Assembly (NCBI GenBank): GCA_963850905.1
Contig: CAWKMU010000004.1
Location: 649,698-713,697 of the forward strand
Source of the DNA: an uncultured Gemmatimonadales bacterium
GTDB lineage: Bacteria > Gemmatimonadota > Gemmatimonadetes > Gemmatimonadales > Gemmatimonadaceae
Direction: 5' to 3'
DNA: 64,000 nt
Under the pieces are notes generated by a model. That model searched no databases. It saw only the letters and a program-made list of their open reading frames with translations, and was not told the DNA's origin. Of this stretch, positions 21,461 through 46,404 are shown one piece after another. The translations under genes were made by a program, and so were the position numbers. Position 1 is the first letter of the stretch. Each line of letters begins with the position of its first letter.

Positions 21461-21552
21461 GGGTTGACCGACTCAACGGTTCCGCTAGCGATCCTGAACT
21501 CTACGTCCACCCGCGATCAGCGCCGCCAGTCTTGCGTCTGGAGGGCCGGCCC

Positions 21553-24780: not shown

Positions 24781-24994
24781 AGGTCGCGTCACACATGTTC
24801 CCGTAAATCCCCCGGCGGTTGCCGCCGCCGTCCCCTGTGGACTTTGTACAGACGCGTTTCACGTGCATTGCGACAGTGCGTGGCGCGCATCCTGCGCCTG
24901 GGACGAGTCTGTCAGCGCGGTTGGTAATCGCGTGCGCGCGGTGGTAGGAGAACGCGCGCGCACAATCGAGGGAGGCAAGGAAGGAGATACGCAC

Positions 24995-25771: not shown

Positions 25772-25781
25772 GGAGCGACGA

Positions 25782-26630
25782 ATGGATCCGTACACCAGTT
25801 CCTCCGAACCCGTTCTCGAGACGCTGGACCCGGAGATTCGCGCCCGTCTGGCGCAGCGGGAGGCAGAGATCGCGCACGGCGCGAGCGTTGCGCGCGTGAC
25901 GGCGGCCGGTTTGGCCATGGCATCCGTGCCCGTCGCGCTCGCGGCATTGGCGCGCGACGTGTTCGCGCAGGGAGGTCTCCCAGCCAACATCGTGTCCATT
26001 CTCAACTTTGCGCTGATGCACGAGTACATGGAGTCGACGTTGTATAACTACGGCCTCTCCGCGCACTTTCAGGTCGTTCCGGGCGAGGACATCCCGCTCT
26101 TCCAGACCATCCAGGCGCACGAGAACCTGCACAAGCAGTATCTCCTTGCCACACTGGGCTCGGAGGCCGTTCGCGAGCCGTTTTTCGATTGGTCGGGCGG
26201 AGGCGGCACGTACAACGGCCCGTACCATGCGGCGTTCTACGAGTACGAGGAGTTCAAGGCGCTATCGCAGTCCTTCGAGGACCTCGGCGTGCGGATGTAT
26301 AAGGGGCTAGCGCCGGCTCTGATGGGGGAGCAACCCCTCCTGCTCGCCGCGCTACAGATCCATTCGGTCGAGGCGCGGCACGCATGCGAGGTGCGGCGGC
26401 TCCGTGGCAACTTCCTCGACAATGTGCCCAACCGGGGGTGGATCACGGGTGACCAGACGGACATCTCCCTCACCAGCGCGTTCTACGCCGGGGAGGAAAA
26501 CACCGTCCAGGACGGCATCGACCTCGTGACGCTGCAATTCAGCGCGGCGGACGCGAGCGAGGCGTTCGACGAACCAATGACCATGCAAGAGGTGCAGGCG
26601 GCACTCGTCCCATTCATAATCCCGCCGTAA
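25782..26630 (+). CDS. Ferritin-like domain protein (desiccation-related type)
   Basis: ILNFALMHEYME, HENLH, FEDLGVRMYKG, IHSVEARHA, SEAFDEP. Confidence 0.88.
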   Translation: MDPYTSSSEPVLETLDPEIRARLAQREAEIAHGASVARVTAAGLAMASVPVALAALARDVFAQGGLPANIVSILNFALMHEYMESTLYNYGLSAHFQVVPGEDIPLFQTIQAHENLHKQYLLATLGSEAVREPFFDWSGGGGTYNGPYHAAFYEYEEFKALSQSFEDLGVRMYKGLAPALMGEQPLLLAALQIHSVEARHACEVRRLRGNFLDNVPNRGWITGDQTDISLTSAFYAGEENTVQDGIDLVTLQFSAADASEAFDEPMTMQEVQAALVPFIIPP

Positions 26631-26722: not shown

Positions 26723-28687
26723 TCACTGGCTGCGGGATTGGACGTCGGCTGGTGGCTTGGCCGTGTTGCCTTGCCACGATGCGAGGATCTCGGCCTGCAG
26801 CCGGTCGGGGTGGTCAATCGGCGTCATGTGGTAGCTCTCGTCCATGCGGTGCGCCAGCGTCACGTCGATCGTCCGGTCCTGGCCGCCCCTGGAGATCCCG
26901 ACCTTGACCACATCGCCGGGCTTTCTGGTCACGATATAGCCGCGCAGCGTCGCGCCCGGGGTCGTGGCGCCATCGATCGATTCGACTACGTCTCCCACGC
27001 GGAGGCCGGCGAGCTCCGCGGGCGACTTCTCCATGACCGCCGTGATCGCCACCTTGCCGTCCACGTCCTCGTCGATCGCGCCGAGGAAGGGATCGTTCGT
27101 CTCGACCGGCGGATCGAGTCGCAGTCCAGCGTAGGCGAGATACTTGGGATAGTCGATCTCCTTGGTCGTGTTGGCGTACTGGAACGCGTCGCCCAGCGGC
27201 GCGCCGGCCACGGCCTCGCATGCCTTCTGGAATTCCTCGTCAGTCCAGCCACGCTTCAGCTGCTTGTAGTACTTCTGGTAGAGATTGCGCATCACGTTGT
27301 CGAGCGACTTCTGGTTCTTCGTGTCGTGGCGGATTGCGAAGTCGAGGACGAGACCCAACAACGGCCCAGTGTTGTAGTAGGAGACCGTCTTGGAGACCGG
27401 GCCGGTCGGTGGGATGCCGGGTTGCGCGGGGCCACCAGGCGTCCCAGCACGGGCGCGCGCGCCAGCGGCTCCGCTGCCGCCGGCGCCTCCCTGCCCCCGT
27501 CTCGCAAAGCTGTACTGTGTCCAAGTGTTCCAACTGTCCATGGTGGGCGACTCATAGAGATGGCCGGTGCCGTCTTCCACCGTCTTCATGTCTTTCGTGA
27601 AGCTGCCCAACAGATCATCCAGCGTCATGAGCCCGGCACGCGCCACCAGCATGTACTCGTAATAGACCGTGAAGCCCTCCGAGACCCAGAGCATGTGCGT
27701 GCGGTTTTCGTGGTCGTAGTCGAAGGGCCCGAGCGCGATGGGGCGGATGCGCTTCACGTTGTACGTGTGGAAGTACTCGTGCGCCAGGAAGCCAAGCTCG
27801 CGATTCCGCACCGGTCCCGGGGTGTCGTATGCGGGGTTCGCATGGAAGGGAACGGCCGCAGAGTTCAGGTGCTCGACGCCGCCGGCGCCGGCGCCGTAGC
27901 CCAGGAATACATAGTGCGAGTATGGGATATCGCCCATCATCTGCGTGGCGACCTGCACGATGGCCTTCAGCTGGCCCATGAACTCGGCGCCGTCGAAGGC
28001 CTGTGCGTCCATGTTGTAGGCGACGAACTCGTGGCGCACACCACCTACCTCGAAGGCCGGCAGTGAATCCAGATTCCCGATGAGAATTGGGCTGTCGTAG
28101 AGCGCGTCGTAATTGGGCGCCTCGTAGACGTGGCGCGCGCCTGGCGAGGCAGGATCGAGACCGGTGGCCACGTCTCGCCACCCCGCCGGCGGCTCGATGT
28201 CCACGGTCACGCGATGATTGATGAGGCCCGCGGGATACATGAAGACGCCGGTGCCGATCAGGAAGCCGTGCGAGGCGTCGAGAAAGGGGCTGGCCACGAA
28301 CGACGTGGTGGCCAGTACGTCGTACGTCAGCGTCACCCTCGGGGCATTGGCCGTCCGCACGCGCCAGTCGTTGGGCGATACCTTGTCGTTGACCGATACG
28401 AGGTCCCACCCAAGGTCATGCCCCACGCCATCCACGGCTTTGAACTCTTTCACGTTGCGCGCGAAATCCATGATGCCGTAATAGCCCGGCGACCACACCG
28501 GTAGCTTGAAATCGATCGACGGTCCCGTCAGGCTGTCGCACTGCATGACGACGTGATAGACCTGCGAGGCCGCATCCGGCATCGTCACCGTGAAGGCGAT
28601 CGTCCCGCGCGCCTGTTGCGCCGAGGCCAGCGATGCCGACAACAGCACGCCGACGCCGAACAGCATGCTGCGACCCATGTTCTTCAT
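26723..28687 (-). CDS. M61 family metallopeptidase with PDZ domain
   Basis: Signal peptide, PVWSPGYY, GGVEHLNS, AHEYFHTYNVKRIRP, LWVSEGFTVYY, C-terminal PDZ. Confidence 0.92.
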   Translation of the reverse strand: MKNMGRSMLFGVGVLLSASLASAQQARGTIAFTVTMPDAASQVYHVVMQCDSLTGPSIDFKLPVWSPGYYGIMDFARNVKEFKAVDGVGHDLGWDLVSVNDKVSPNDWRVRTANAPRVTLTYDVLATTSFVASPFLDASHGFLIGTGVFMYPAGLINHRVTVDIEPPAGWRDVATGLDPASPGARHVYEAPNYDALYDSPILIGNLDSLPAFEVGGVRHEFVAYNMDAQAFDGAEFMGQLKAIVQVATQMMGDIPYSHYVFLGYGAGAGGVEHLNSAAVPFHANPAYDTPGPVRNRELGFLAHEYFHTYNVKRIRPIALGPFDYDHENRTHMLWVSEGFTVYYEYMLVARAGLMTLDDLLGSFTKDMKTVEDGTGHLYESPTMDSWNTWTQYSFARRGQGGAGGSGAAGARARAGTPGGPAQPGIPPTGPVSKTVSYYNTGPLLGLVLDFAIRHDTKNQKSLDNVMRNLYQKYYKQLKRGWTDEEFQKACEAVAGAPLGDAFQYANTTKEIDYPKYLAYAGLRLDPPVETNDPFLGAIDEDVDGKVAITAVMEKSPAELAGLRVGDVVESIDGATTPGATLRGYIVTRKPGDVVKVGISRGGQDRTIDVTLAHRMDESYHMTPIDHPDRLQAEILASWQGNTAKPPADVQSRSQ

Positions 28688-29260: not shown

Positions 29261-30413
29261 TCAGTTCGTTTCTAGTGCCTCCTTCCCCGGCAATTTCGGG
29301 AACGGCGCGTGCGGCTCCTCCTGATACCAATACGCCACCGAGGCAATGTCATCCCTCAGCGGCAGATATCCCCCTGTGTCCCGCCAACCGAGTGCCTGTA
29401 TGGTGACGCGCAGATCCGAATTGAAGCGAACGGGGTCGGCAATGTGCCAACGGTACAACCCAAACCGCTGCTGCGATTGATATAAACCGTCCGGCTTGAT
29501 GACTTGCACGAGACCCGAGTACGGGCTCGTAAACTCCTCGTACTGCTTCGTCTCACTGTTCTCGAAGTCGTACGAACCGTTGAAGTAGTCCTCGGTGCCG
29601 GTCCCGTTGATCGTTGGGTAGGTCTGGTCCCCGTCAATGTAGAACTTGATCTCACCCTCGCCCCACCACCCATTGTTGTGCACGCCCCACGCCATGTAAG
29701 TGCCGACGTAGTGACCCTTGCCTTTGACTCCATCGAGGATCGTGTAGACCTGCTTGTACGGCAGCGGATTCACTCGGCGAAACTGCGCGTGGAAGTAGGC
29801 AGCGTCGGTGGGCACAGGCGCGAGTGCGTAGTCGATCTGATAGTACAGCTCCATGGGTTTACCATCGAGATTCTCGATCGTGATTCTCGCCTTACGCCTG
29901 AACGGCAGGGGCCAATACGAGTTGAACGCGCTCCCCGGATTCACACACACAGCCAGCGACGACACCCGCGCGTACTTACCCCAGCCCATCGCGAAGAAGT
30001 CACCCACCGGGACCTCCACCGAGGGCTCGCGCTCGTCGTCCCAATACATCCGCAGAATCGAGAGGCGCCAATTCCCGGTTGGAGTCATCCGAGATGTGTT
30101 GGATCGCCCCAGAGCCAGTGATCTCCGCGAGCGTGTACGTCGTGCCCGCCCCGATCTTGACGGACGGGCTGATCTTCCACCCCGGACCCAAGTCACGAGC
30201 CATGCTTGCGCCCGTCCCCTCGGTCGCCATGCCACCCTTGCCCTTCTCACCAGTCGGATTCTCCGGGCTGATGGAAAGTGTCCGCGCAGTCGATAGGCGA
30301 TACAGATTGCCAAGATGCGTATCGAGGCCGTCATACGACCCGTTCTGAGCCAAAGCGGCGCGCGGCGCGCACACCAGGAACGCGGCGGCTACAAGTCTAA
30401 TGGTTGACCGCAC
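29261..30413 (-). pseudogene. Glycoside hydrolase family 172 (DUF2961), split by a +1 frameshift at ~30091
   Basis: Signal peptide and SISPENPTGEKGKGG..GAIQHI in one frame, MTPTGNWRLSILRMYWDDE..WWGEGEIKFY..GTGTEDYF in the next; atc t(c)gg atg restores IWM. Confidence 0.85.
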
Positions 30414-30623
30414 TGCGGCTCTCTCAATGTTTGGGTGCACCGAATCGACTGAGAACCATGGCGCATCGCAAGGGCGGGTGGCGTGAATGCCGCCCGGTGC
30501 GGCGCCTGACCGTGCTCCCCGTTCTGCATCCCGGGCCGACGGGTAGGCCCGGCACATGCTCCCCGGAATGCCGCAATGATCTCAGCCTTTGCGTCCGCCC
30601 GATCGAGCGATAACGTATACGCC

Positions 30624-31871
30624 ATGCGAACGCTTGTGGCAGTGGGATGCTTCGTGCTCATCGCGTGGAGGGTGACGCACATCGACCGCCCGGCCAATGC
30701 GCACGCATCGACGGCAGATTCGACGTTCGCGGACGATATCCGCTTCCTGCGGCAGTACACGACGATCCTGGTGCTCTCCGATCGAGCGGGAACAGGCCAG
30801 GTCGCCGTAGCGCCGGCGTGGCAGGGTCGGGTCATGACGAGCTCCGCTCGAGGCGTCGATGGCCACAGCTTCGGCTGGATCAATCGCGAGCTGATCGCAT
30901 CCGGCAAAGTTTTGCCGCATTTCAACCCGCTGGGTGGTGAGGATCGGCTGTGGCTAGGACCCGAGGGCGGACAGTTCTCGATTTACTTTGCCCCACACGC
31001 GCCGTTCGATCTCGCGCACTGGTTCGTGCCGAGTCCTTTTGATACCAAGCCGTTCCGCAGCGCCGATACGGCGGCGCGAGACCGCGTTTCGTTCGCGTCC
31101 GATTTTGTGCTGCGCAACTATTCGGAGACTGTCTTCACGGTTCGGCTGCAGCGAACGATTCGCGTGCTCGAGCCCGACCTCGCATGGCAGGATTTGTCCC
31201 TGCCGCCGGCCAAAGACGTCGCGCTCGTTGCGTACGAGTCGCAGAATTCCCTGACCAATGCGGGTGCGGTGGACTGGCGCAAGGAAACGGGTCTGCTCTC
31301 TCTCTGGGTTCTTGGCATGTTCAAGCCCTCACCGGCGACGACGATCGTGATACCGATCCGAGACGGGCCCGAGAGCACACTTGGCAAGGCCGTGACTACG
31401 GATTACTTCGGCGCGATCCCGGCAGATCGGCTCAAAGTGACAGACCGCGCGATCTTCCTACGCGGCGATGGGAAGTACCGCAGCAAGATCGGCATTAATC
31501 CACGGCGGAGCCTGGCGACGCTCGGGAGCTACGATGCCCGTGATCACGTGCTCACGATCGTGCAGTTCGATCAACCGCGTGAGACCACTGATTACGTGAA
31601 TTCCCTCTGGCACATCCAGACTGACCCTTACGGCGGCAATGTCGCGAACGCCTATAACGATGGCCCGCCTGCACCGGGCGTTGCGCCGCTGGGACCGTTT
31701 GTCGAGCTGGAATCGTCATCTCCCGCCGTCGCGCTGGCCGCAGGTCAAAGCGTATCCCACGTGCATCGCACGATCCATCTCATGGGTCCACCCGATGAGT
31801 TGGATCGCGTATCGCGATCGGTGCTCGGCGTGTCACTGCTCGAAGTGGAATCCGCGTTCGCGCCGCACTAG
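30624..31871 (+). CDS. DUF6786-like exported protein
   Basis: AWQGRVMTSS, GGEDRLWLGPEGGQFSIYF, NAYNDGPP, FVELESSSPA. Confidence 0.75.
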   Translation: MRTLVAVGCFVLIAWRVTHIDRPANAHASTADSTFADDIRFLRQYTTILVLSDRAGTGQVAVAPAWQGRVMTSSARGVDGHSFGWINRELIASGKVLPHFNPLGGEDRLWLGPEGGQFSIYFAPHAPFDLAHWFVPSPFDTKPFRSADTAARDRVSFASDFVLRNYSETVFTVRLQRTIRVLEPDLAWQDLSLPPAKDVALVAYESQNSLTNAGAVDWRKETGLLSLWVLGMFKPSPATTIVIPIRDGPESTLGKAVTTDYFGAIPADRLKVTDRAIFLRGDGKYRSKIGINPRRSLATLGSYDARDHVLTIVQFDQPRETTDYVNSLWHIQTDPYGGNVANAYNDGPPAPGVAPLGPFVELESSSPAVALAAGQSVSHVHRTIHLMGPPDELDRVSRSVLGVSLLEVESAFAPH

Positions 31872-31882
31872 CCGCGTCCCGC

Positions 31883-33289
31883 ATGCCGAGTATCGAGAAA
31901 CAACGGAGAAGCGGGGCAGCGCTTTGGTTCGGCGCGGCGGATGGCCGCACGCACACGGCCACCTTCTTTCTCGTCGCATCGCTCTTTTTGCTGTGGGGCT
32001 GCTGTAACGGCATGATCAATGTGATGGACAAGCACTTTCAGGATCTGCTGCATCTGTCGAAAGCGCAATCCGCGTGGGTCCAGACCGCTCATTACATGGG
32101 CTACGCGCTCATGGCCTTTCCCGCGGGCCTCATCGCGCGTGCCATCGGCTACAAGGGTGGAATCATTTCGGGCCTGGTGCTCGTCGCCGTCGGAGGATTC
32201 TGGTTCGTCGCGGCGACCCATATCGCGGCATTCTGGGCGTTTCTGCTGGGGGTCTGCTTGATCGCAATGGGGCTGACCGTGCTCGAAACAGTGGCCAACC
32301 CCTATACGACTGTGCTCGGCCCCCCGCGGTTCGCCGCCTTTCGCATCAACCTGGCACAAAGCTTCAACGGAGTGGGCTGGATGACCGGCCCAATCATCGG
32401 GGGTGCGTTTTTCTACGCGGCGGGGGGCGCGGAGGTCGCGCAGGGTCGACTCTATATCCCGTACGCGGCGATCGCCATCGTGGCGCTCGTGTTAGGAGGC
32501 ATCTTTTTTTTGTCGGACGTACCCGATCTCGTGGCCCACACGCACCAGAGTGATGATCCGAGGGAATCCCCAGTTGACCCGGCAGCGTCCTCGCCAGATC
32601 GATCGATCTGGACCCACCCGCATTTCGTGGGGGGCGTACTGGCGCAATTTCTCTACGTCGCCGCGCAAGCCGGGATATTCAGCTTCTTCATTAATTACAT
32701 GGTCGCCGAGGCACCGTCGTTCAGCACTGGCTGGGGTGTCGCCTGGCTCGCGCAACATGGCATGGTCACGCACGCTGCGCACGGTTGGTCGATCAACGAA
32801 CAAGGTGCTGCGCGTCTGCAGGGCCTGGTCGGCTTTGGCCTATTTACCATTGGGCGGTTGAGCGGCTCCGCGCTCTTGGGGAAAGCACGACCCGATCGGG
32901 TCCTGGGCGCATACTCGTTCGCCAACGTAATCCTCTGTGCGCTCGTCGTCGCCAAGCTCGGGTGGTTATCGGTCGCCGCGGTCTTCGGGAGCTTTTTTTT
33001 CATGTCGATCAGTTTCCCGACGATCTTTGCGCTCGGAATCGACGGCTTGGGACCGAAGACGAAGAAAGCGTCGGCCTTTCTGGTCATGGCGATCCTGGGC
33101 GGCGCGCTGATGCCAAAGGTCATGGGCCACGTGGGGGACGTCTACAACATGTCGGTCGCGTTCTGGGTGCCACTGGCCTGCTTTGCACTCATCGCGCTCT
33201 ATGGCTACGCGTGGCGTGTGCTGAGCGTCGGAGCGGTCGCCTCGTCGTTTATGAGGAGCCCCGTGGAAGAAACGGGCGCAACCCTATGA
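31883..33289 (+). CDS. fucP: L-fucose:H+ symporter family MFS permease
   Basis: LFLLWG, LETVANPY, RINLAQSFNG, AQFLYVAAQ, MSISFPTIFALG. Confidence 0.85.
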   Translation: MPSIEKQRRSGAALWFGAADGRTHTATFFLVASLFLLWGCCNGMINVMDKHFQDLLHLSKAQSAWVQTAHYMGYALMAFPAGLIARAIGYKGGIISGLVLVAVGGFWFVAATHIAAFWAFLLGVCLIAMGLTVLETVANPYTTVLGPPRFAAFRINLAQSFNGVGWMTGPIIGGAFFYAAGGAEVAQGRLYIPYAAIAIVALVLGGIFFLSDVPDLVAHTHQSDDPRESPVDPAASSPDRSIWTHPHFVGGVLAQFLYVAAQAGIFSFFINYMVAEAPSFSTGWGVAWLAQHGMVTHAAHGWSINEQGAARLQGLVGFGLFTIGRLSGSALLGKARPDRVLGAYSFANVILCALVVAKLGWLSVAAVFGSFFFMSISFPTIFALGIDGLGPKTKKASAFLVMAILGGALMPKVMGHVGDVYNMSVAFWVPLACFALIALYGYAWRVLSVGAVASSFMRSPVEETGATL

Positions 33290-34911
33290 GCGAGCCAATT
33301 CTCGCGGTTGCGAACGGCGATCTGCGTTTGTCGGCCAACCGAGCCTGCTGGGCGGCGCAAGAGCAAGTCGAGAAGGCCGTCACCGCCGCGATCCGGTTGC
33401 TAGGGCACGACCTACAGCGTGCGCATGCCTATGACCCGGTGAAACAACACGGATTCATCGACAGCCAAAAGCGCGGTATTGAAGTATTCCGCGCGATCGC
33501 GCCTGATCGCCCACTCATCGTGATCGAAGCCGTCTGGCAGTACAGCCAGCAGATCCTGCCGGGACTGCTCGGCCATCGTGGCCCCATTCTCACCATTGCG
33601 AACTGGAGCGGCCAGTGGCCTGGGCTCGTGGGACTCCTCAATCTCAACGCGTCGCTTCGAAAGGCCGGCCGCCCGTTTAGCACGCTCTGGAGCAGCGACT
33701 TCACCGATCAGTTTTTTGTGAACGGCCTGAAACAATGGCTCGACGGCAAACCAATCGTCCACGATCAATCTCACGTTCGGGACTGGTCGGCAGTCAATGT
33801 GCCTGCCGAGGCTCGGCGGCTGGGTGCGAATCTCGCCGAGACCCTGCAGCGCGAGAAGGCCATTCTCGGCGTGTTCGATGAAGGCTGCATGGGCATGTAC
33901 AACGCCATCATCCCGGACGAGCTGCTGCAGCCCTTGGGTGTGTTCAAGGAGCGCCTGAGCCAATCCGCGCTGTACGCCGAGATGCTACGCACGTCAGACG
34001 CGGACGCGCGTGCGGTGTACCGCTGGCTTCTCGATAAGGGCATGCAGTTCCGATTCGGGCCCGATCCCGAGACGGATCTGACGGAGAAACAGGTCCTCGA
34101 CCAGTGCAGAATGTACATCGCGGCGGTACGCTTGGCGGACGAATTTGGTTGTGCCGCGGTTGGCATTCAGTACCAGCAAGGGCTGAAGGATCTCGTTCCA
34201 GCCTCGGACCTTGCTGAGGGGCTTCTCAACAACGTCGATCGGCCCCCAGTCTGCGACCGCGCCGGGCGACCACTGTTCCCGGGTCAAGCGCTGCCGCACT
34301 TCAACGAAGTCGATGAGTGCGTGGGGCTCGACGCCCTGATTACGAATCGAGTGTGGACGGCGCTTGGACTGCCGCCGGAGACCACGCTTCATGATCTACG
34401 GTACGGCGAGCACTATGGCGAGACGACCGATGCAGCCTTTGTCTGGACGCTCGAGTGCTCTGGGTCGGCGCCGCCCGCACACTTCGGGCGTGGCTACCGA
34501 GATGCAGTGAGCGAGCGCCAGCCGCCAATGTATTTCCGTCTTGGTGGCGGCACGATCAAGGGTATCAGTAAGCCCGGCCACGTTGTGTGGAGCCGCATTT
34601 ATGTCGAGCCTGCAGGGTTGAAGGCCAATGTCGGCCTGGCGCGCGCAATCGAGCTCCCCGACGCGGAAACCGACCGCCGCTGGCGGATGACGACATCACA
34701 GTGGCCGATGATGCATACCGTGTTTCCGGGCATTACGCGCGATCAATTCATGGCGCGGCACTGTTCGAATCACATTCAGGTCGCGTATGCACCTGATGAG
34801 GCACTGGCGACCCACGCGCTCTGTGTGAAGGCTGCAACGTTTCACGCGCTGGGCATCGACACCCATTTCTGCGGGACCACGCCACTTGCAAGCGCCGCGC
34901 CGGCGACCTGA
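33286..34911 (+). CDS. Fucose/arabinose isomerase-like protein
   Basis: VANGDLRLSAN, NWSGQWPGLVG, FDEGCMGM, GIQYQQGL, HFNEVDEC, TLHDLRYG, SNHIQVAY; ATGA overlap with the permease. Confidence 0.8.
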   Translation: MSEPILAVANGDLRLSANRACWAAQEQVEKAVTAAIRLLGHDLQRAHAYDPVKQHGFIDSQKRGIEVFRAIAPDRPLIVIEAVWQYSQQILPGLLGHRGPILTIANWSGQWPGLVGLLNLNASLRKAGRPFSTLWSSDFTDQFFVNGLKQWLDGKPIVHDQSHVRDWSAVNVPAEARRLGANLAETLQREKAILGVFDEGCMGMYNAIIPDELLQPLGVFKERLSQSALYAEMLRTSDADARAVYRWLLDKGMQFRFGPDPETDLTEKQVLDQCRMYIAAVRLADEFGCAAVGIQYQQGLKDLVPASDLAEGLLNNVDRPPVCDRAGRPLFPGQALPHFNEVDECVGLDALITNRVWTALGLPPETTLHDLRYGEHYGETTDAAFVWTLECSGSAPPAHFGRGYRDAVSERQPPMYFRLGGGTIKGISKPGHVVWSRIYVEPAGLKANVGLARAIELPDAETDRRWRMTTSQWPMMHTVFPGITRDQFMARHCSNHIQVAYAPDEALATHALCVKAATFHALGIDTHFCGTTPLASAAPAT

Positions 34912-34969
34912 CGTCGCGATGGGTCTCATCGCAACCCATGCGCGTACGTAGCGCATTGGTCACGTCGCC

Positions 34970-36493
34970 ATGACGATCGTTGCGGGAGTCGATTTCGGAA
35001 CCGGCAACGTGCGAGTCTCGATCGTCGACAGCGAACGGGGTCGGCTTGCCCAGGGCATTGGTGAGTATCCTGTCTTGCGCGACCCTGCTGATCCCAATTG
35101 GGCTACACAGCGTCACGCCGATCATCTGCGAGCGTTGGAGCACGCGTGTCACGCTGCGCTGTCGCGCGCGCGTGTCAGTGGCAAGGTCATCGAAGCTCTC
35201 GCACTCGACACCACTGGGTCGACGGTCGTCATGCTCGATGAGCGCCTCCAGCCACTCGATGACTATTACCTGTGGTGCGACCATCGGGCATGGCGTGAGG
35301 CACAGGAGATTACTCGCGCTGGCTGCGCCCAGCAGCTCACTGCACTCGATTGGTGCGGCGGCAGCTACTCGTCCGAGTGGGGGTTTGCCAAGGTTCTGCA
35401 CTGGCTGCGATCCCATCCTGCGGCGCGTGCACGATTTTGCACGGCGGCCGAGCACTGTGATTACATCGTCGCGACGCTCTGCGGCATCAGCACCCTCGAC
35501 GAGTTGCCACGCTCAGCCTGTGCCATGGGCCACAAGTGGATGTGGCACCAGGAGCTCGGAGGTCTGCCGTCGGGCGAGTTCCTCGAATCCGTCGATCCAT
35601 TGCTCGCCGGCGTTCGAGACCGCCTGGCGGGTCGGTACCTGACCTCAGACCAGACCGCAGGCGAACTGTCCGGCGAGTGGGCCGACCGACTGACGCTCGG
35701 GGCCGGCATCCCGATTGCTGTCGGTGCGCTCGACGCGCATTGGGATGCCCTCGGCGCAGGCTGTCGGCTCGGCGATGTTGTCAACGTCATCGGTACCTCG
35801 ACCTGCATCATGGCGCTGGCCGATACCCCGCGCCTCATTCCCGGCGTGTCTGGTTTGGCCCAGGGCTCCATTCATCCGAAGAAGCTTGGTATTGAGGCCG
35901 GGTTGTCCGCAGTTGGTGACCTGTTCGAGGCGATCGCGAAACGAGCGAGTACGCCGCTGTCAGCGCTGTCGGACAGGATTCAGCACTACGGTGCCGGCCA
36001 AACTGGACTAATGCGATTGGCTTGGGACAATGGCGACCGGTCGATTCTCGTCAATCCGCAGTTGAGGGGAATTACGCTCGGCTGGCGCCTCAATCACACA
36101 GCCGCGGACGAGCTCTTTGCGGCAATCGAAGGCACGGCATTTCACACCCGGATCATTCTCGAACGCTTGCAGGAATACGGCGTGCCGATCGATCGCGTGA
36201 TCAACGCCGGAGGGATACCCCAGCGCAATGAGGCGCTGAACCGCGTGTATGCCAGCGTGCTGGGCAAGCCGATCCTGGTGCCCGAAACCGACACGACGAG
36301 TTTGGGCTCTGCGATCTTCGCCTTCGTGTGTGCCGGAGCATTCAAGTCGGTGGAGGAGGCGCAGCAGGCGATTGCGCCGCGTCACCGAGTCTGCGAGCCC
36401 ATCGCACGGGACGTTCAGACATATCAGGATCTGTTTGGTCAGTTTCGCGAATTGTACTTCGCATTCGGGAAGGCACGATGGGCGGCGCCGTGA
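34970..36493 (+). CDS. Ribulokinase-like FGGY carbohydrate kinase
   Basis: GVDFGT, DTTGST, LWCDHRA, YSSEWGFAK, CAMGHKW, GTSTC, WDNGDRS. Confidence 0.88.
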   Translation: MTIVAGVDFGTGNVRVSIVDSERGRLAQGIGEYPVLRDPADPNWATQRHADHLRALEHACHAALSRARVSGKVIEALALDTTGSTVVMLDERLQPLDDYYLWCDHRAWREAQEITRAGCAQQLTALDWCGGSYSSEWGFAKVLHWLRSHPAARARFCTAAEHCDYIVATLCGISTLDELPRSACAMGHKWMWHQELGGLPSGEFLESVDPLLAGVRDRLAGRYLTSDQTAGELSGEWADRLTLGAGIPIAVGALDAHWDALGAGCRLGDVVNVIGTSTCIMALADTPRLIPGVSGLAQGSIHPKKLGIEAGLSAVGDLFEAIAKRASTPLSALSDRIQHYGAGQTGLMRLAWDNGDRSILVNPQLRGITLGWRLNHTAADELFAAIEGTAFHTRIILERLQEYGVPIDRVINAGGIPQRNEALNRVYASVLGKPILVPETDTTSLGSAIFAFVCAGAFKSVEEAQQAIAPRHRVCEPIARDVQTYQDLFGQFRELYFAFGKARWAAP

Positions 36494-36564
36494 CTATAAC
36501 GACTCCGTGACGGGCGTGTGCGCAAAAAACCCCGCCGGAAGTCAGGTGTCGGTAGCCGTCCCCA

Positions 36565-39441
36565 TTATCCGCGGCGGTCTGTCGTGATGCCCAGCTCGAC
36601 GCTGATCTCAGTCCGTGCCGCAAGCGCCACGGGGCGCCCGAAATCCACATGCACATCGGTGCCGTTGACCACAGCGGTGTGACCGGTGATCGGCTGTCCA
36701 TTTGGGCCGGTCACTCGCGTCGTGGCGACGGCCGAGCCCTGCGCGACGTTGACGATCAGGTGGCGGATGGGAACCTCGCCGCGTCGCGCGGCGACGCGGA
36801 ACGTGACTGACCGGTCGTCCGCCGTTCGGCTCAGGGTGCCCCAACCTGATCCGGCGGCAAAAAAGCAGCGGAAGTTGCTGGCATTGACCTGCGGGGCAAA
36901 GGTCAGCGTCTGGTCGATCGCCGAGTACCGGTACCCGGCGAGCGCGGACAGGACGGACCAGCTGGCAAGCGCGCGGGCGTAATGGTGGCCGCACTCGACC
37001 TCGTTCCACGGATTCCGGCGCGCGCCGTCGTACCGATCCACCACACCTTTGACGATGGCCAGTCCTTCCTCGACGAGACCCTCGTAGATCATGTGGCCGG
37101 CGACCTGGAATTCGACGCCGGTCCACACTTCATCGGAGTACGGGAACGGCAGCGCGGGGCGACCGCCCTTTGGCCACGTGCAAAGGAGCAGGCCCTTTTC
37201 GTCGTTGAGGGCGAAGATGCGCTGCGTGTTGGGGTGATCGTAGAAGCTGGTGCGGAAGTTGTGGTGGTAGATCGCCTGTAGCGCCTGGCGGATGCGTTCG
37301 TGCGACCACCCTGGATCCAGCCCCACGACTGTCGCCATCCACGCGCCAAGCAGTTGGTCGGAGAGACAGCCATCGCCAAACTGATAGCGAACCTGCCCGT
37401 TCTGGATAGCGGACGCGTGCCAGCTGGCGTCGGCGTACTTCGTCATGGGATGGATCTGGTCGGCCGCTGGCACCTTTTGGATGTAGAACTCGCCGTTCCA
37501 CAGCTGCTCGAGATTGGCGACCCCGCGCTCCCGCACCCGCCGATACGTGGCGGCAGCATCGGCATCGCCCACTGCGGTCCCCATGAGCTCCGCCGCCCGT
37601 AGCGCGCCCTGATACAGCGTACTCATCATCGAGTTCGGGCCGTAGAACTCGACGTCGTACGTGTTGTGTTGCTCCCCCTCGAAGAGGCCGTCCCGGTCGG
37701 CGTCCCAGTGTGTCCAGGCGAATTCGAGGGCGCGTTTCGCGGCGGGCCAGAGCTGCTTCAGGAGTTCGTCGTCGCCCGAGAGCTGCCATTCGCGATAGAG
37801 CTTGATAATCGTACCCATCTGGCCGTCAGCGGCGGGGCGGAAGTCCCACTGCGCCCGCCCGACTGGGATCAGTGTGCGGAAGGCCATGCTGTCGTCGGCG
37901 CGCATGTTGGATAGGAAGTCGGTGCGGCGCATCGAGCGCTCGAGCTCCGGGTAGAGGGCGGCGAGCGCTTGCTCGTAGTTCCAGACATGGGTGCAGTTCA
38001 TCGGGCAGCACCCGGCGTTGTCGTCGCACCCCTCGAAGGCGTAGAACTGCTTGCCCTCGAGCAGCATGCAGGTGTTGGTGCGGATGATGGCGGCCTGACT
38101 GGACACGGCTTCCAGCACGTACCCGGGGAGCGTCGCGGAGTAGAACCCGTCGCTGAAATCTCGCGTCTTCCTTTCGAGCTCCGGCAGACGTGCGACGGTG
38201 TGACGCGCGACCTCCCACGCGCTCTGGAATCGCGTGCCATAGTAGTTGCGAAGATGCTGGCCTTTGACCTCCTTCTGGTCGTTCCAGTAGTTCTGGCGGA
38301 CCGGGAAGTACCAGGCGAGGATGAACGTCACCGACTGTGATTCTCCTGGCGCGAGCTGCAGTCGCGGCGCGAGCGTCGCATACGTCGAGCGGCCGTCGGC
38401 CGACGCTGACGGGGGCACGACGTCGTGCAGCGTCCCGCTCTGGGCGAACTCGTCGTACCATGTCTGGTATGCGTCCCACCAATCACCCACATCCGCCCAC
38501 GCGGTCGTCGCGGTCACGTCTGGGCTCGTCGTGATGAGCGCCATCGAGCCGCCGCCCACGTCCTCGGGTCCGTACTTGGCTGACGTCATTTCCAGCCCTT
38601 GTACCCGCACACCTCCGGCGTTTTCCGTTCGGAAGGTGTTCAGGTTCTTACCGAATCCGGGGTGCTGCGGGCCTGCGAGGTCGGCCTTCCCGTCGTAGCC
38701 GACTGCGTTGAGCGACGAAAACGCCAGTGCCAGTTCGACCGGCTTCGAGCTGCGCGAGCGCACGTGGTAGCGAAGGATCGCCACCGGCAGGCTCGAATCA
38801 TCGACATCGAGTGGGACCAAGGGATTGAACGCGTCGAGTGAGAGCTCGACCGGTAGCGACTCGTCCTCGAACGCGATCGTCGCAAAGGGATAGGCACCGG
38901 TGAAGCGCGCCGCGCGGAACCGCGGCAACCCTTCGGCGGACTCTCGGTGTAAGCCCTCTTGGCCGCGGAAGGGAGCGGCGAGCGGGCCTTCGACCACTCG
39001 CACGGCGGACTGCGCCCCTTCGCTGCGCACCCAGAGCGCGACGAAGCTGAACGGGAGGATCTTTCCCTTGCCAGGTCGGTTGAAGATCTCCCAATCCCTG
39101 AGCTGACCGCGGCCGCCGAGCGACACGGTACCCGTGCCGATGCCACCCAGGGGGAAGGCAACCTCGTTCAGGTGGTCGCCGGTGAGAACGCGCGGCTTCC
39201 GCGCCTGGTACAGATCCTGAGGCGAGTAGGGGATGATGGATCCGGCCGCCGAACGAAACGCGTTCGGCTCCCGGGGCGCCTGCGCCTCGAGCGCTTGCGC
39301 GAGGGTCGACGCGCCAATGGCGGCCGAGGACGTGGAGACGAGAAAGTCTCGACGATTGATGGGCTTGTCAGCGGGGCTATCGGAATCGTGCGGCGTCGTG
39401 GCTCCCTGTTGGATCGCCGGTGTCGGCGCGGCCGCGGTCAA
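36565..39441 (-). CDS. Tat-exported glycoside hydrolase family 116
   Basis: NRRDFL Tat motif; FPLGGIGTG, NCTHVWNYEQ, AADGQMG, EGEQHNTYD, SDEVWTG, NPWNEVECGHHYAR. Confidence 0.88.
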   Translation of the reverse strand: MTAAAPTPAIQQGATTPHDSDSPADKPINRRDFLVSTSSAAIGASTLAQALEAQAPREPNAFRSAAGSIIPYSPQDLYQARKPRVLTGDHLNEVAFPLGGIGTGTVSLGGRGQLRDWEIFNRPGKGKILPFSFVALWVRSEGAQSAVRVVEGPLAAPFRGQEGLHRESAEGLPRFRAARFTGAYPFATIAFEDESLPVELSLDAFNPLVPLDVDDSSLPVAILRYHVRSRSSKPVELALAFSSLNAVGYDGKADLAGPQHPGFGKNLNTFRTENAGGVRVQGLEMTSAKYGPEDVGGGSMALITTSPDVTATTAWADVGDWWDAYQTWYDEFAQSGTLHDVVPPSASADGRSTYATLAPRLQLAPGESQSVTFILAWYFPVRQNYWNDQKEVKGQHLRNYYGTRFQSAWEVARHTVARLPELERKTRDFSDGFYSATLPGYVLEAVSSQAAIIRTNTCMLLEGKQFYAFEGCDDNAGCCPMNCTHVWNYEQALAALYPELERSMRRTDFLSNMRADDSMAFRTLIPVGRAQWDFRPAADGQMGTIIKLYREWQLSGDDELLKQLWPAAKRALEFAWTHWDADRDGLFEGEQHNTYDVEFYGPNSMMSTLYQGALRAAELMGTAVGDADAAATYRRVRERGVANLEQLWNGEFYIQKVPAADQIHPMTKYADASWHASAIQNGQVRYQFGDGCLSDQLLGAWMATVVGLDPGWSHERIRQALQAIYHHNFRTSFYDHPNTQRIFALNDEKGLLLCTWPKGGRPALPFPYSDEVWTGVEFQVAGHMIYEGLVEEGLAIVKGVVDRYDGARRNPWNEVECGHHYARALASWSVLSALAGYRYSAIDQTLTFAPQVNASNFRCFFAAGSGWGTLSRTADDRSVTFRVAARRGEVPIRHLIVNVAQGSAVATTRVTGPNGQPITGHTAVVNGTDVHVDFGRPVALAARTEISVELGITTDRRG

Positions 39442-40556
39442 TCATCGGCGGTCAAAGAAAGAGGGTCCGTCGTCGCGCCGTAAGCGGGTCGCTTGGGGGG
39501 CGCGGGCGCAAACGACTCCAAGTCAAGCATCTTGGCGCGCACGCCCAAGTCGTGAGTCGCCGAGTGCAGAGCGTGCTCCACGATTCGTCGAAGTGTGTCC
39601 GGCGCCGTAGCGACCCGCGCATTGATGATGGCGGACGCTTCGCGAACCGGGGCGAGCGAGGCGCCACGATCCCATCGCGGGCGCGCATCGTTGGTCGTGA
39701 GGCCGATTCGATCGTTGCCGTGCGCAGTGGCCAGCAGGATCTTCACGTGAGCGATGGCGGCGTCGACCTCCGCGCACCCGGCCCGGACCGCCTCGATCAC
39801 CGTTTCGCCCAGCCCCGTAGGAGAAAATTCCTTCGTCGAGACGAGATCCACGATGGCGTTGAGCCATCCGAGCGAGGCCTCGGCGCGGCCGTAGGTGTCG
39901 TAGTCGATATCGAGCGCGCGGTCATTGCGAGAGGATGTGTTGAGGAGGTGGCTCACCCACTCGTCCACCCCCGCGCCGGTCATGGCGCTCATGGCTATGA
40001 CTGGGACATCGCCAATCCATTCCCGGAGGTGCGACGTGAGGCGGTTGGATTCTGGTGCGTCGAGCAGGTCGCTCTTGCTCAGGATGATGAGCTCCGCTTC
40101 TCGGACTTGTTGTTCGAAGAGGTAGCGGACGCTGTCGTCGAACGGTCCGACGGGGCGGAGAAGCTGGCGCAGGCGTGCTGGCTCGACGAAGATGGAGAGA
40201 GGTGCGAGGGAGAAGGCCGCCGCATGGAAGCGTTGTATCGGCGTGTAGACCGTGGCCGCCAGGTCGGTGCAGCTGCCGACGGCTTCGGCGAGGATCACGC
40301 CCGGCCGGTGCTGCTCCACTAGTTGTGATGCGCTGGCGATGAACTCCGCGAACCGGCAGCAGAAGCATCCGTGGGTGATCTCGGTCACGTCGAGACCGAA
40401 GTCGCGTACGACAGTGGTGTCGACGAGGTGAGAGCCCTGGTCATTGGTGATGGCGCCAACGCGAGTACCTCGCGCGATCAGCTCGCGCGTCGCGGCGATT
40501 AGTGCCGTCGTCTTTCCGGCGCCAAGGAAGCCGCCGATACACGCGAGTCGCACCAT
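39438..40556 (-). CDS. CobW/COG0523-like GTP-binding protein
   Basis: GGFLGAGKTT, ITNDQG, GCFCC metal motif, EAVGSCTD, SKSD. Confidence 0.85.
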   Translation of the reverse strand: MVRLACIGGFLGAGKTTALIAATRELIARGTRVGAITNDQGSHLVDTTVVRDFGLDVTEITHGCFCCRFAEFIASASQLVEQHRPGVILAEAVGSCTDLAATVYTPIQRFHAAAFSLAPLSIFVEPARLRQLLRPVGPFDDSVRYLFEQQVREAELIILSKSDLLDAPESNRLTSHLREWIGDVPVIAMSAMTGAGVDEWVSHLLNTSSRNDRALDIDYDTYGRAEASLGWLNAIVDLVSTKEFSPTGLGETVIEAVRAGCAEVDAAIAHVKILLATAHGNDRIGLTTNDARPRWDRGASLAPVREASAIINARVATAPDTLRRIVEHALHSATHDLGVRAKMLDLESFAPAPPKRPAYGATTDPLSLTADD

Positions 40557-40914
40557 GGGATGTCGAATTTGCCGCGTCGGCTCAGTTCTGCAAGGCGGGA
40601 CCGCCATGTGTTCGCCATCGTGAGGCGGATCGACCTGATGGTGGCCAGTTGGCCGAGTAGCGGACGGTTTCCGACGGACCTTCCGGAACACCGCGCACGC
40701 CCGCAGAATTGCGGCGGCCGATGCTGAGTGGCGGCGCATTTGCGGTACGGCGCGCGCGCCGCGTCGCGGAGCGCGGGCGTCCTCTCGCCAGAGCTGGAGC
40801 ACATTTGCCGATCCTGGTTGCACGGACGCTGGTAGGGGCCGAAGGGGGCATGGGTGTCATCCAGTTGTTGACGCGAACGTGACAGTACCAGATGAGGCCA
40901 CGGTGCCAATACAT

Positions 40915-42033
40915 ATGAGCGTGCGCGTTCGCTGGTCGAGCGCGCGAAGACTTCTCGCCAGTGCGTCCGCGCTGATCGGCGCCGCCGGCGGTGCGGCGTG
41001 TGAGTACGACCAATACAGCAATCCGATTACAGCGCTGCCGGTGTTCACGATCCAGCAACTCGGCGTGTTCAATGGCGGGAACGCAAGCGAAGCCACTTCG
41101 GGCTCGGCCACGATGCTCGTCGGATGGGCGGCGGACGCGGACAACCAGCGCCATGCCGTGACATTTGCCGGTGGCCGGGCCTTGCGTCTTCCTGAGCCCG
41201 CTGGGGCATCGGCCAGCGTGGCAAATGCGGTGAACGCGGCTGGCGTGATCGTCGGTGCGGCGACCATCGCCGGAATCCAGCGCGCCATCGTTTGGTCATC
41301 ACCGACGACGACGCCAACGTTCCTGCCGACCCTGGGCGGCTCTTTTTGCGTTGCGCAAAGCGTCAACGGCCAGAACATCATCGCCGGTGTGTCGCAAACC
41401 GCAGCGGGCGACACCGTGATCGTGCTTTGGCAAACGGGCAATTCTCAGTACGTCGTTGCGCCGTTCGATTCGGGTGGCGGCGTCGGCTGGCAGGCTGTGG
41501 ACGTCGACGACATCATGGACGTCGCTGGCAACTTGGGACCCGCCATGAGTGGTGCCGACGCGTTCTACGCGAACCCCGATGTCGGGGTCGACACCATCAC
41601 GCCACCTGGCGCGGGGGCCACCGTCGCCCACGGCATGAACCAACACGGAATCGTGGTCGGCGCCATCATCGCGGGTTCGGGCCCGCCGCAAGCGTTCGCG
41701 TTCACCGATGCGGCCGGGACCGACGTGCTGGGGATCCCGCCTGCCGGTTACACCGGCGTTGCGGCCAATGCGGTCACCGACAATGGCATCATCGCCGGGA
41801 CAGCGTCGACGGCCGACGCTGCCGGCAATACGTTGACCAGCATCGCCGCGATCGTGTCCGTCACCAACCTCGCAGCCACGTTCAGACCTCTCCCTACCCT
41901 CGGCGGCGGCATGACACGCGTAACTGACAATGGCGTGACGCCCTGTGGCGCGATCCTCGGCCAAGCGATGGCCACCACGACGTCGGCCGCTGTTGCAGTC
42001 GCGTGGGTCCCAGCCGGATGCACGGTGCCATGA
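40915..42033 (+). CDS. Extracellular HAF-repeat-like lipoprotein
   Basis: GAAC lipobox-like site; repeats of A-x-A-V-N-x-x-G-x-I-V-G and LPTLGG. Confidence 0.65.
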   Translation: MSVRVRWSSARRLLASASALIGAAGGAACEYDQYSNPITALPVFTIQQLGVFNGGNASEATSGSATMLVGWAADADNQRHAVTFAGGRALRLPEPAGASASVANAVNAAGVIVGAATIAGIQRAIVWSSPTTTPTFLPTLGGSFCVAQSVNGQNIIAGVSQTAAGDTVIVLWQTGNSQYVVAPFDSGGGVGWQAVDVDDIMDVAGNLGPAMSGADAFYANPDVGVDTITPPGAGATVAHGMNQHGIVVGAIIAGSGPPQAFAFTDAAGTDVLGIPPAGYTGVAANAVTDNGIIAGTASTADAAGNTLTSIAAIVSVTNLAATFRPLPTLGGGMTRVTDNGVTPCGAILGQAMATTTSAAVAVAWVPAGCTVP

Positions 42034-44253
42034 TACGACGCGAGCACATTCTGGATGGCGTGATCAGAGCGACGGTCGTGCGCGGCTGGCGCGCTCTCAT
42101 CTCGGGAGTTGGCTCGACGATCGCCATCGTATCCTTCGTCGGTGCGCAGCAGCCAGCTCCCCCGCACGATTCCACGACTCGGACCGACACCACGCGACGC
42201 GGCCAACTGCCTTCTGTCGTCGTCAGCGGCACCCGGCTCTCCGACGTCAATCCACACGTGCCCTCAACCATTGAGTCTCTCGATCTGCACACGGCACCTA
42301 TCGCGAGCCCTGGGGCGCTCAGCGACGCGATGCTCGAACTTCCGGGCGTAAGCATGTACGACGACCAAGGGGCGCGTCTCCAACCCGAGATCGAGGTGCG
42401 CGGCTTCACCTCGTCATCGGTCGTCGGCACGCCACAGGGGATCGGGGTGTTCCTGAACGGCATCCGGGTCAATGAACCCGACGCTCAGGAGGTTGACTAC
42501 GACCTTCTTCCCTCGGCCGCCATCGATCACGCGACTCTCGATCGCGGATCCAACGTGCTCTTCGGGCGGAACTCGCTCGGCGGCACCTTGCTCATGACCA
42601 CGAAGCGGGGCGATGAAACGCCCGAGGCCACTGCCGAGCTCGGGATCGGATCGTGGGGCGATCAGTTGGCGACGGTGACTGCGAGTGGCAGGCAAAGCGG
42701 CCTCGATGCCTTCGTCGCAGCGACGGGAGAGAACGAGGTCGGTTGGAAGGGCGTATCCTCAGCAAACACCCGCAATGTGTTCGCCACCATTGGATACCAG
42801 TGGGGCCCATCGCACGAGAGTGGCGACATTGCATTGGATGTCCTCTACGGCCACGATAAGATCTTTCAGGTCGGCTCGCTCCCCGTGGTGTACGCTGGCA
42901 TCAACCCGCGGTACGACTTCGGACCAGGCGACGACTTCAGCCCGGAGGCCCTGGATCTTGACCTGCGTGGCAACTCCGTTGCGCTCGGCGGCATCCTACG
43001 CGCGACGCTGTTCGCTCGACGCAACGTCATCGGGCAGTTCAACAGCATCATTCCGCCGCCGGACATCGACGACAACACACAGAACCTGAGTGGTGGCACG
43101 ACGGTGGAGTGGACGCGACCACTGTTGATCAAGTCTGTGCCGATCGGTTTCACGGTTGGCACCGAGTACTCGCGCGAGTCCTCGGCGATCCGCGTGCTCA
43201 ATGTGCTTGCCGGCCCATTGGTCGTCACGACCCTGGCGACGATCCACCAAGACAATGCCGCCGCGTACTCCCAGGCGGTGGCGTCCATCACGCGTCGCGT
43301 CGACATCACGGCTGGCCTGCGGTACGACTACGTGCACATCCCATATCGCGACGGACTCGACGCTGCGAACAATGGCACCAGCTCGTACAACCGCGTCTCA
43401 CCAGAGATTGGGGTGACGGACCGATTCACTGATTTTCTCACCGGGTACGTGGCCTACAAGGGCGGGTTCCGTGCGCCGGCCCCGTTGGAATTGGCGTGTG
43501 CGGATCCCACAGCCCCGTGCAGTCTCCCGTCCGCGCTTGGGACCGACCCCACGCTCAAACCGGTCACGACGCGGGATTACGAAGGTGGGGTCACGCTCCA
43601 GGCCAACGGTCGCACGAGCCTCCAAGCGGATGCGTTCTGGACCGACGTGTTCAACGACATCGTATTTGCCTCGCCGAATCGTATCCAGACCTTTTACCTC
43701 AATGCGCCCGAGACGCGCCGCGCGGGAGTCGAAACATCCGCGATCGTCGGCCTGCCCCAAGGCGCCTATCTGACAGCGTCCTATAGCTACATCGCGGCGA
43801 CGTTCCAGAGCGTGGTCGCCATTCTCGTCTGCCAACCCCAATGAGCAGCCGACGAAACCCGGCGACTTCTTGCCCTCCTCGCCGCTCAATCGCGGCCGCA
43901 TCGGCATTGGCCTACTCCGCCCGCTCAAGTTCCTGCTCGTGAACGCCGAGTTCGCCATCCACGGATTTTCGTCGCAGTACCTCCGAGGAGACGAGGCGAA
44001 CCAACTGCCTCAGCTTCCAGGTTACACAATCGCGGAGATCCGCGGACACATTGACTACAAGCGCTTCGGGGCAAAGTTCGAGATCGAGAACCTGTTCAAC
44101 AGGCAATATGACACGTTCGGCGTCGTCGCCCAGAACAACCTGATCCCGATCTACTCGCAACTGCCACTGGCTGACCCCGACGCGCCGATCGTGCCGTTTG
44201 TCACAACCGGCTTTCCGCGCCGCGTCGTCGTGACATTCAGCGTGCGTTACTGA
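42030..44253 (+). pseudogene. TonB-dependent receptor, frameshifted at ~43825
   Basis: LPSVVVSGTR box, plug QGIGVFLNGIRVNEP/FGRNSLGG; C-terminal ENLFNRQYDTFG...FSVRY lies in another frame (43870-44253). Confidence 0.85.
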
Positions 44254-46278: not shown

Positions 46279-46404
46279 CCCTCCAGCCATTCTGGTCGAG
46301 CGAAACGCACAACAATGGATCCCCATCCTTGAATCCACAAGCCAGTGCGGCTTCGGCTACACAGCGACCATCAAGCAGACCAGGTCACACGTTCCCGTGG
46401 CGAT

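Follow-up and report, generated by a model that had tools for sequence, protein, structure and literature searches.

The locus at positions 29261-40556 of the window (the whole stretch of 64,000 nucleotides that was analysed) is predicted to be a scavenging unit for D-arabinofuranose (D-Araf). D-Araf would be clipped from glycan ends, imported and converted to D-ribulose-5-phosphate. We assign this reading a probability of about 0.8, based on gene content, the nearest solved relatives, conserved catalytic and specificity residues, predicted folds and co-occurrence. D-arabinose is a rare sugar of mycobacterial-type cell walls, and the same pathway from exo-enzymes via an isomerase and a kinase to D-ribulose-5-phosphate was already proposed in 2023 (PMC10509167). 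As the pathway is known, the added value is the DUF6786 protein and its tie to GH172/GH116 and to the polysaccharide utilization locus PUL42 of Dysgonomonas gadei, a link which was not found in our literature searches. The features are as follows:

29261..30413, minus strand: GH172 (DUF2961), predicted ExoMA1-like exo-alpha-D-arabinofuranosidase (Pfam E 8e-96; 8ic8 E 2e-104)
30414..30623, no strand: intergenic region between the divergent GH172 and DUF6786 genes (from sequence)
30624 (likely start)..31871, plus strand: DUF6786 protein with hydrophobic N-terminus, ORF from 30576 (Pfam E 1.5e-145)
31883..33289, plus strand: FucP-like MFS sugar:H+ symporter (TIGR00885, 254 bits)
33286..34911, plus strand: divergent 541-aa protein with predicted FucI/D-arabinose-isomerase fold (weak Pfam FucI matches; model pLDDT 91)
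34970..36493, plus strand: AraB-like FGGY ribulokinase (PRK04123, 509 bits; 3qdk E 2e-59)
36565..39441, minus strand: GH116, predicted subfamily-4-like exo-beta-D-arabinofuranosidase with twin-arginine motif RRDFL (8ic6 E 3e-163)
39438..40556, minus strand: G3E/CobW-type P-loop GTPase with GCFCC metal motif (PF02492 E 3e-21)

The DNA comes from a Gemmatimonadaceae bacterium of soil (assembly of 4.49 Mb, 82% complete): its RecA shares 94-98% identity with proteins assigned to Gemmatimonadaceae or Gemmatimonadales, and the best-matching sequencing runs are soil metagenomes. According to the ORF listing and family scans, a tightly packed plus-strand block of four genes (DUF6786, permease, isomerase, kinase) is flanked by two minus-strand units, GH172 on one side and GTPase-GH116 on the other, so the locus comprises more than one operon. 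The initial annotation had described six clustered sugar genes. All six were confirmed at their place, but they belong to several transcription units and not to a single operon; the GTPase and a frameshift in GH172 had been overlooked, and the significance of DUF6786 had been missed. Independent soil contigs cross two of the gene borders, GH172-DUF6786 in X4 and kinase-GH116 in X1 and X6. Hence, the gene arrangement is real. The locus contains no regulator gene, and a promoter and terminator scan of it gave results no better than chance. GNAT and M61 genes lie to its left, and a TonB-dependent receptor gene at 42003 and a 384-aa ORF lie to its right. All four were rejected as members of the unit as none recurs with the sugar genes in genome G004; the receptor gene and the 384-aa ORF are missing at this place in both G001 and G004.

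The GH172 protein has ExoMA1 as its closest solved relative, with alphaFFase1 matching at only E 1.5e-40. The catalytic Glu pair E252/E274 and D282, numbered in the intact copy of G001, are the same in the window, and the spacing of 22 residues between the catalytic Glu equals that in D. gadei Dg67. Eight residues past the nucleophile, an Asp occupies the position of ExoMA1 Asn253, which blocks fructose (PMC10509167), and of Gly299 at the fructose-permitting position of alphaFFase1 (PMC10941961). A bulky residue here is a feature of the ExoMA1 clade. The exo-alpha release of D-Araf that had been suggested is supported, as the nearest relative is an exo-alpha enzyme and its catalytic and specificity residues are kept. 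The N-terminus reads like a signal peptide. In this assembly, one extra base near 30091 breaks the frame. The base is missing from G001 and G004, where GH172 is intact, and from contigs of two of four soil runs (X2, X6; X1 and X4 have no depth there). Hence, the frameshift is probably an assembly error.

The GH116 protein is closest to ExoMA2 among solved enzymes, and beta-glucosidases match at about 1e-27. Its residues E470, H485, R522 and D596 align with E431, H446, R483 and D557 of ExoMA2, that is, four of four are kept. In ExoMA2, Glu431 is the nucleophile and Asp557 the acid/base (PMC10509167). Arg483 and His446 replace His507 and Asp452 of the glucosidases, which is the key difference from these enzymes (PMC10509167, Shimokawa et al.). 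The far stronger ExoMA2 match and the Arg/His specificity pair agree with the former assignment as an exo-beta-D-arabinofuranosidase type and not a beta-glucosidase. The N-terminus appears export-like from the sequence, and the RRDFL motif is in line with the Tat signal that had been noted. GH116 was found in two of nine genomes of the same genus and in no other genus of the host family among 36 searched.

The permease scores below the TIGR00885 cut-off of 280 bits, and this is still its best family. The isomerase gene overlaps the permease stop codon. Its product reaches 21.3 bits against PF02952 (cut-off 29.3) and has no NCBIfam match and no sequence match in the PDB. Its model aligns with the D-arabinose isomerase 3a9r (Z 36.2, rmsd 2.9, 346 residues aligned) and with FucI (Z about 35), as compared to Z values of at most 31.7 for AraA; in its predicted fold, it is nearer to D-arabinose/L-fucose isomerases than to AraA. 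E341, D370 and H496 are invariant across 34 homologues and, matched by motif, fit the FucI Mn ligands Glu337, Asp361 and His528 (PMC6894278). The protein thus shares the fold (Z 35-36) and the Glu/Asp/His metal ligands with 3a9r, 1fui and 6k1f, but it is only 15-17% identical to them and falls below the Pfam cut-offs. No characterised member of its branch was found.

Among 150 genomes of the host phylum, GH172 is present in 13 of 14 isomerase carriers versus 8 of 136 non-carriers, and in 8 of the 13 genomes with both, the genes lie within about 7 kb; as 9 of these 13 come from a single family, they do not count as independent cases. We found 597 isomerase loci, mostly in Acidobacteriota. The best 80 of them, with up to 10 kb on each side, contain GH172 in 7, GH116 in 3, an FGGY kinase in 7 and a FucP-like permease in 4. 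A downstream Gfo/Idh/MocA oxidoreductase accounts for 9 of the 75 neighbouring ORFs scanned (out of 137 picked). With so few close loci carrying GH172 or GH116 and some having the oxidoreductase gene, the isomerase branch serves more than one context.

The kinase passes PRK04123 (cut-off 428) and fails TIGR01234 (321 bits, cut-off 583), and it reaches only 50 bits against the FucK profile (cut-off 471). Its closest solved match, 3qdk, is an L-ribulokinase; E. coli AraB also phosphorylates D-ribulose (PMC12307932). The gene families and the isomerase fold are as the initial annotation had proposed for FucP-type uptake, FucI-type isomerisation and ribulokinase-like phosphorylation. It had also noted that no aldolase is linked, which fits D-ribulose-5-phosphate entering the pentose phosphate pathway. 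This agrees with the host genome (82% complete), which encodes Rpe and in which no stand-alone class II aldolase was found. The sole class II aldolase domain sits in a 682-aa protein whose C-terminal half is short-chain-dehydrogenase-like. AraA, GH29, GalM and FucU/RbsD were likewise not found in this 82% complete genome.

In the proposed pathway, GH172 and GH116 are putatively exported and would act on glycan ends, with GH172 removing alpha-linked and GH116 beta-linked D-arabinofuranose. As retaining glycosidases, they would release it as alpha- and beta-furanose outside the cytoplasm. An exported DUF6786 may speed the conversion to the ring form that is taken up by the FucP-type permease; this is the least certain step, which we hold at slightly below even odds. 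The FucI-fold isomerase would turn D-arabinose into D-ribulose and the AraB-like kinase would make D-ribulose-5-phosphate, which Rpe would feed into the pentose phosphate pathway. Exo-alpha and exo-beta release followed by uptake, isomerisation and phosphorylation had been suggested before, and relatives, residues and folds support it.

DUF6786 is predicted to adopt a beta-sandwich of the galactose-mutarotase type (model pLDDT 83.6). The best Foldseek match of the model is 3nre (E 1.4e-9), VIA-align gave Z 18.5 with an rmsd of 3.5 over 257 residues, and 16 of the top 18 structural matches are mutarotase-like (Z 14-18.5). With GalM, YphB and YeaD of the aldose 1-epimerase/galactose mutarotase family, it would thus share the fold (Z up to 18.5). 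In contrast, it is larger, putatively exported and without sequence or profile similarity to them: against a profile of 28 GalM sequences, hhalign gave a probability of 0.8, which is not significant. Single-sequence and profile searches of the PDB gave no match, and a search of the ESM Atlas returned only DUF6786 clusters. The conserved polar set comprises R124, R193, N228, D298, K304, N361, E377, E379, H395 and H401. Judged by topology and not by superposition, E379 is a conserved Glu on the penultimate strand that may match the catalytic base, and no conserved His is present on the strand that apparently corresponds to the GalM acid. The active site therefore appears to differ from that of GalM.

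The family is large, with 1,926 representatives. We scanned 13 members that are longer than usual. DUF6786 is joined to GH172 in two of them, once in each order, and YhcH, GH43-like and SDR fusions occur once each; one DUF6786-GH172 fusion cluster has 69 members. YhcH is an anomerase. We then compared carriers in 121 Verrucomicrobiota genomes, where eight shorter proteins that matched weakly (E 1e-23 to 1e-26) were placed in the non-carrier group. With kinship and genome size uncontrolled, GH172 is present in 12 of 13 full-strength carriers versus 40 of 108 others, ExoMA2-like GH116 in 10 of 13 versus 20 of 108, and FucU/RbsD in 7 of 13 versus 41 of 108. As carriers do not exclude FucU/RbsD, a role of DUF6786 as a simple FucU replacement is unsupported. 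In 28 metagenome loci, many of them short, GH172 occurs in one, GH116 in two and a FucP-like gene in three (two near duplicates), and many neighbours are unrelated. DUF6786 lies directly upstream of a FucP-type permease here, in G004 and in metagenome locus L122. The surrounding genes of L122 look like an oxidative route for sugars, and none of those scanned encodes a glycosidase.

In D. gadei, HMPREF9455_02469 (F5IZF2), whose gene adjoins the GH116 gene of PUL42, is a DUF6786 protein; the protein of the window is 37% identical to it over 380 aa. It is listed as uncharacterised and was detected with 34 peptides and an iBAQ of 21 million in D-arabinan-grown D. gadei, along with GH172a (41 million), ribulokinase (12 million), GH183 (3.6 million) and GH116 (2.5 million) (PMC10115798). 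The comparison column of this proteome is PBS and not another sugar, so the data show that 02469 is abundant, not that it is induced (PMC10115798). A main-text literature search found no paper that mentions DUF6786, PF20583 or the locus tag from D. gadei. We lean slightly towards DUF6786 being an undescribed enzyme family of D-arabinan catabolism. Putatively exported and with a mutarotase fold and a non-GalM active site, it would either convert released D-arabinofuranose to a transportable ring form or cleave D-arabinan.

The glycosidase half and the four-gene block are separable. In G001, about 6 kb (window 30450-36410) are deleted; what remains is the 3' end of the kinase gene together with a microhomology of 3 bases, and an 81%-identical block with a partial DUF6786 is kept elsewhere. 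In G004, the block of DUF6786, permease, isomerase and kinase lies about 170 kb from GH172/GTPase/GH116. Because a kinase remnant is left in G001, the joined form predates this strain. DUF6786 was found in 0 of 150 genomes of the phylum, which suggests lateral gain.

The initial annotation had seen no GH183 endo-arabinanase, and this holds for the locus. A genome-wide search for DUF4185 found one divergent gene above the cut-off (78.6 bits), unlinked on another contig and frameshifted in the assembly. Its product has a signal-like N-terminus and GTDLG/FGDT motifs and shows no sequence match to the solved GH183 enzymes in the PDB. No DUF4185 gene was found in G001 (70% complete) or G004 (93% complete), both of which carry the glycosidases. 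For import, the locus contains the MFS permease only and no oligosaccharide importer (ABC, TonB-dependent or SusC/D). As there is neither a linked endo-enzyme nor such an importer, end-trimming with cross-feeding is likelier than full polymer degradation, and the cell likely lives on ends or fragments of actinobacterial arabinan or of other soil D-Araf glycans. D-Araf also occurs on Pseudomonas pili and some LPS (bioRxiv 10.1101/2022.07.22.500997). Hence, the substrate may be any terminal D-Araf. The scavenging of actinobacterial arabinan that had been put forward is supported in its exo-release and catabolic gene set, but the D-Araf may come from other glycans.

Other explanations share parts of this evidence. 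Within the same pathway, DUF6786 could act on D-arabinan as a new glycosidase, lyase or transglycosylase, for instance in place of the endo-enzyme or in cap removal. It is putatively exported, occurs in two fusions with GH172 and in one with a GH43-like domain, and tracks glycosidases rather than the absence of FucU. The conserved E377/E379, R193, K304 and D298 are unlike the GalM set, and a GH174 endo-fucanase matches its beta-sandwich over 249 residues (Z 11.9), a sandwich which also occurs in lyases. We nevertheless consider a glycosidase or lyase unlikely, given the predominance of mutarotase-like structural matches, the YhcH fusion and the position directly before FucP-type permeases, including L122 with no glycosidase among its scanned genes. 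D. gadei also has DUF6786 besides two proven GH183 endo-enzymes. A putatively exported ring-form isomerase or mutarotase for D-arabinose, as the predicted fold would suggest, comes close to an even chance without reaching it, and a binding or other role takes the remaining probability. That the locus is the core of full D-arabinan polymer degradation, with the unlinked DUF4185 protein as its endo-arabinanase, is improbable. The score, signal-like N-terminus and motifs of this protein would fit such a role, but the gene is unlinked, frameshifted, without a match to solved GH183 and not found in G001 and G004, and the locus lacks a SusC/D or ABC importer.

The four-gene block could also be a general module for L-fucose, D-arabinose or L-galactose that just happens to lie between the glycosidases. 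This would fit its separability in G001 and G004, the acceptance of L-fucose as well as D-arabinose by the FucP and FucI families (for FucI-type enzymes, see PMC6894278) and the lack of adjacent GH172/GH116 at most close isomerases (best 80 of 597 loci). On the other hand, the kinase is ribulokinase-like and not FucK, GH29 and a stand-alone aldolase were not found in the 82% complete genome, isomerase and GH172 tend to occur together within the phylum, and the kinase remnant makes the joined form older than strain G001. We regard such a general module as quite unlikely. Least probable by far is that the locus serves other sugars, namely beta-glucosides or alpha-fructofuranosides together with L-arabinose catabolism. 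The majority of characterised GH116 enzymes are beta-glucosidases (PMC10509167), and the best solved match of the kinase is an L-ribulokinase. However, GH116 has the Arg/His pair of ExoMA2 and not His/Asp, GH172 has Asp and not Gly at the fructose-permitting position, and the isomerase has the FucI-type fold and ligands, with AraA not found in the genome (82% complete).

To our knowledge, no description of D-arabinan turnover is older than 2023; those published since then concern an actinobacterium, a species of Bacteroidota from the gut, and mycobacteria along with their predators. The D-arabinan PUL of Microbacterium arabinogalactanolyticum comprises EndoMA1/2 (GH183), ExoMA1 (GH172), ExoMA2 (GH116), an ABC importer, an isomerase and a kinase (PMC10509167). 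In the predicted D-Araf scavenging locus described here, GH172 and GH116 fall into the same clades and keep the key residues, and an isomerase and a kinase would likewise lead to D-ribulose-5-phosphate. The locus differs in having no GH183, and where that PUL has an ABC importer for oligosaccharides, it has an MFS permease for monosaccharides. The exo-enzymes of M. arabinogalactanolyticum are cytoplasmic, whereas here the host is Gram-negative and export signals are read from the sequence. DUF6786 and the GTPase are not named for that PUL as far as the accessible text goes (PMC10509167). D. gadei PUL42 shares periplasmic GH172, GH116 (02468), ribulokinase (02482), a fucose isomerase and DUF6786 (02469) with the present locus (PMC10115798; bioRxiv 10.64898/2026.08.13.744632), and FucI, ribulokinase, GH116 and DUF6786 were detected in D-arabinan-grown cells (PMC10115798). 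PUL42 encodes three GH172 and two GH183 enzymes as well as a canonical FucI of 591 aa. In the locus of the window, in contrast, there is a single GH172, neither a GH183 nor a TonB-dependent importer is linked, the isomerase is the divergent 541-aa protein, and the G3E GTPase is present.

A literature search for GH172 together with Gemmatimonad* found no paper. With this locus, the exo-enzyme route would reach into the Gemmatimonadota of soil, which may thus scavenge what is left of actinobacterial cell walls. The locus names three candidate parts: DUF6786, the divergent isomerase branch tied to GH172 and the metallochaperone-type GTPase coupled to GH116. If our reading of DUF6786 is correct, 02469 has been overlooked although it is an abundant product, in a cultured organism, of the D-arabinan locus that has been studied best, and the family lends itself to the discovery of enzymes for mycobacterial glycans.

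The GTPase gene overlaps the GH116 start by 4 bases. It adjoins a subfamily-4-like GH116 gene in G000, G001, G004 and metagenome locus L144. In 251 Acidobacteriota genomes, this was the case for 4 of 13 matches (3 of 12 genomes, one being the seed genome), and 3 of 13 GH116 carriers have the GTPase in their 1.5-kb flanks; it is thus an optional partner of GH116. No paper was found in a literature search for GH116 together with CobW. When the GTPase was modelled in complex with the catalytic domain of GH116, the score was 0.00, which bears neither way. A link between the Cys cluster of GH116 and the GTPase was rejected, as the GCC motif is also present in subfamily-4-like enzymes without a GTPase in the flank examined and the main text of the ExoMA2 paper mentions no metal cofactor (PMC10509167). 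One of the locus enzymes probably receives metal from the GTPase. The latter shares the P-loop and the CxCC motif, whose three Cys are invariant in 65 sequences, with the COG0523/G3E metallochaperone GTPases such as CobW and ZigA, but it differs from them in scoring below all NCBIfam cut-offs and in its coupling to a glycosidase gene.

In the related genome G001, the DUF6786-permease-isomerase-kinase block is cleanly deleted at G001:C2:47690-47820 (locus L094), which corresponds to window positions of about 30450-36410. What remains of the kinase gene there is its final 25 codons, and the joint carries a microhomology of 3 bases. The ferritin-like genes and M61 peptidase paralogues around the locus are kept in the same order in G001. 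Genes of the window on either side of the locus include the following:

21277-23421: ORF of 714 aa whose C-terminal half is repeat-like and rich in Thr/Ser, and which has an acidic tail of ES repeats
24863-26630, 26723-28687, and 44398-46338: ferritin-like (Ferritin_2) genes in tandem, and a pair of paralogous M61 peptidase-PDZ genes
40879-42033: putative secreted repeat protein of 384 aa, preceding the TonB-dependent receptor
42003-44253: TonB-dependent receptor, broken into ORFs of 613 and 127 aa

The split of the receptor is probably another single-base assembly error. Neither the 714-aa ORF nor the 384-aa repeat protein gave a Pfam match.

Isomerases of the same branch as the one in the locus appear to have a second pathway context. 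In many Acidobacteriota (L007, L010, L012, L017, L031, L035, L043, L046, and L075), a Gfo/Idh/MocA oxidoreductase gene lies downstream. A GHMP kinase gene is close by in L007 and L082.

DUF6786 also varies in form and surroundings. One subfamily (L172-L179) comprises shorter proteins of about 340 aa that lack an obvious signal peptide, and a conserved 291-292-aa protein comes next in six of the eight loci. In L122 (3173-10518), DUF6786 has an enolase-superfamily gene on one side and a FucP-like permease on the other, with aldo-keto reductase, SDR, and amidohydrolase genes alongside, a set which we take to resemble an oxidative L-fucose/D-arabinose pathway.

A second group of the same G3E/CobW-type GTPase (L211-L218) belongs to a different conserved Acidobacteriota gene set, which shares a small upstream protein and downstream Cys-containing ORFs and has no relation to sugars.

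Elsewhere in the window's own genome (G000), a divergent, putative secreted DUF4185 (GH183-like) gene with a shifted reading frame is located at G000:C3:2589631-2590876 (L085 9632-10877). Its neighbourhood is non-sugar, and the protein had no sequence match to solved GH183 enzymes. On the same contig, a transposase-like ORF (G000:C3:3346999-3348123; L210) adjoins the aldolase-dehydrogenase fusion gene.
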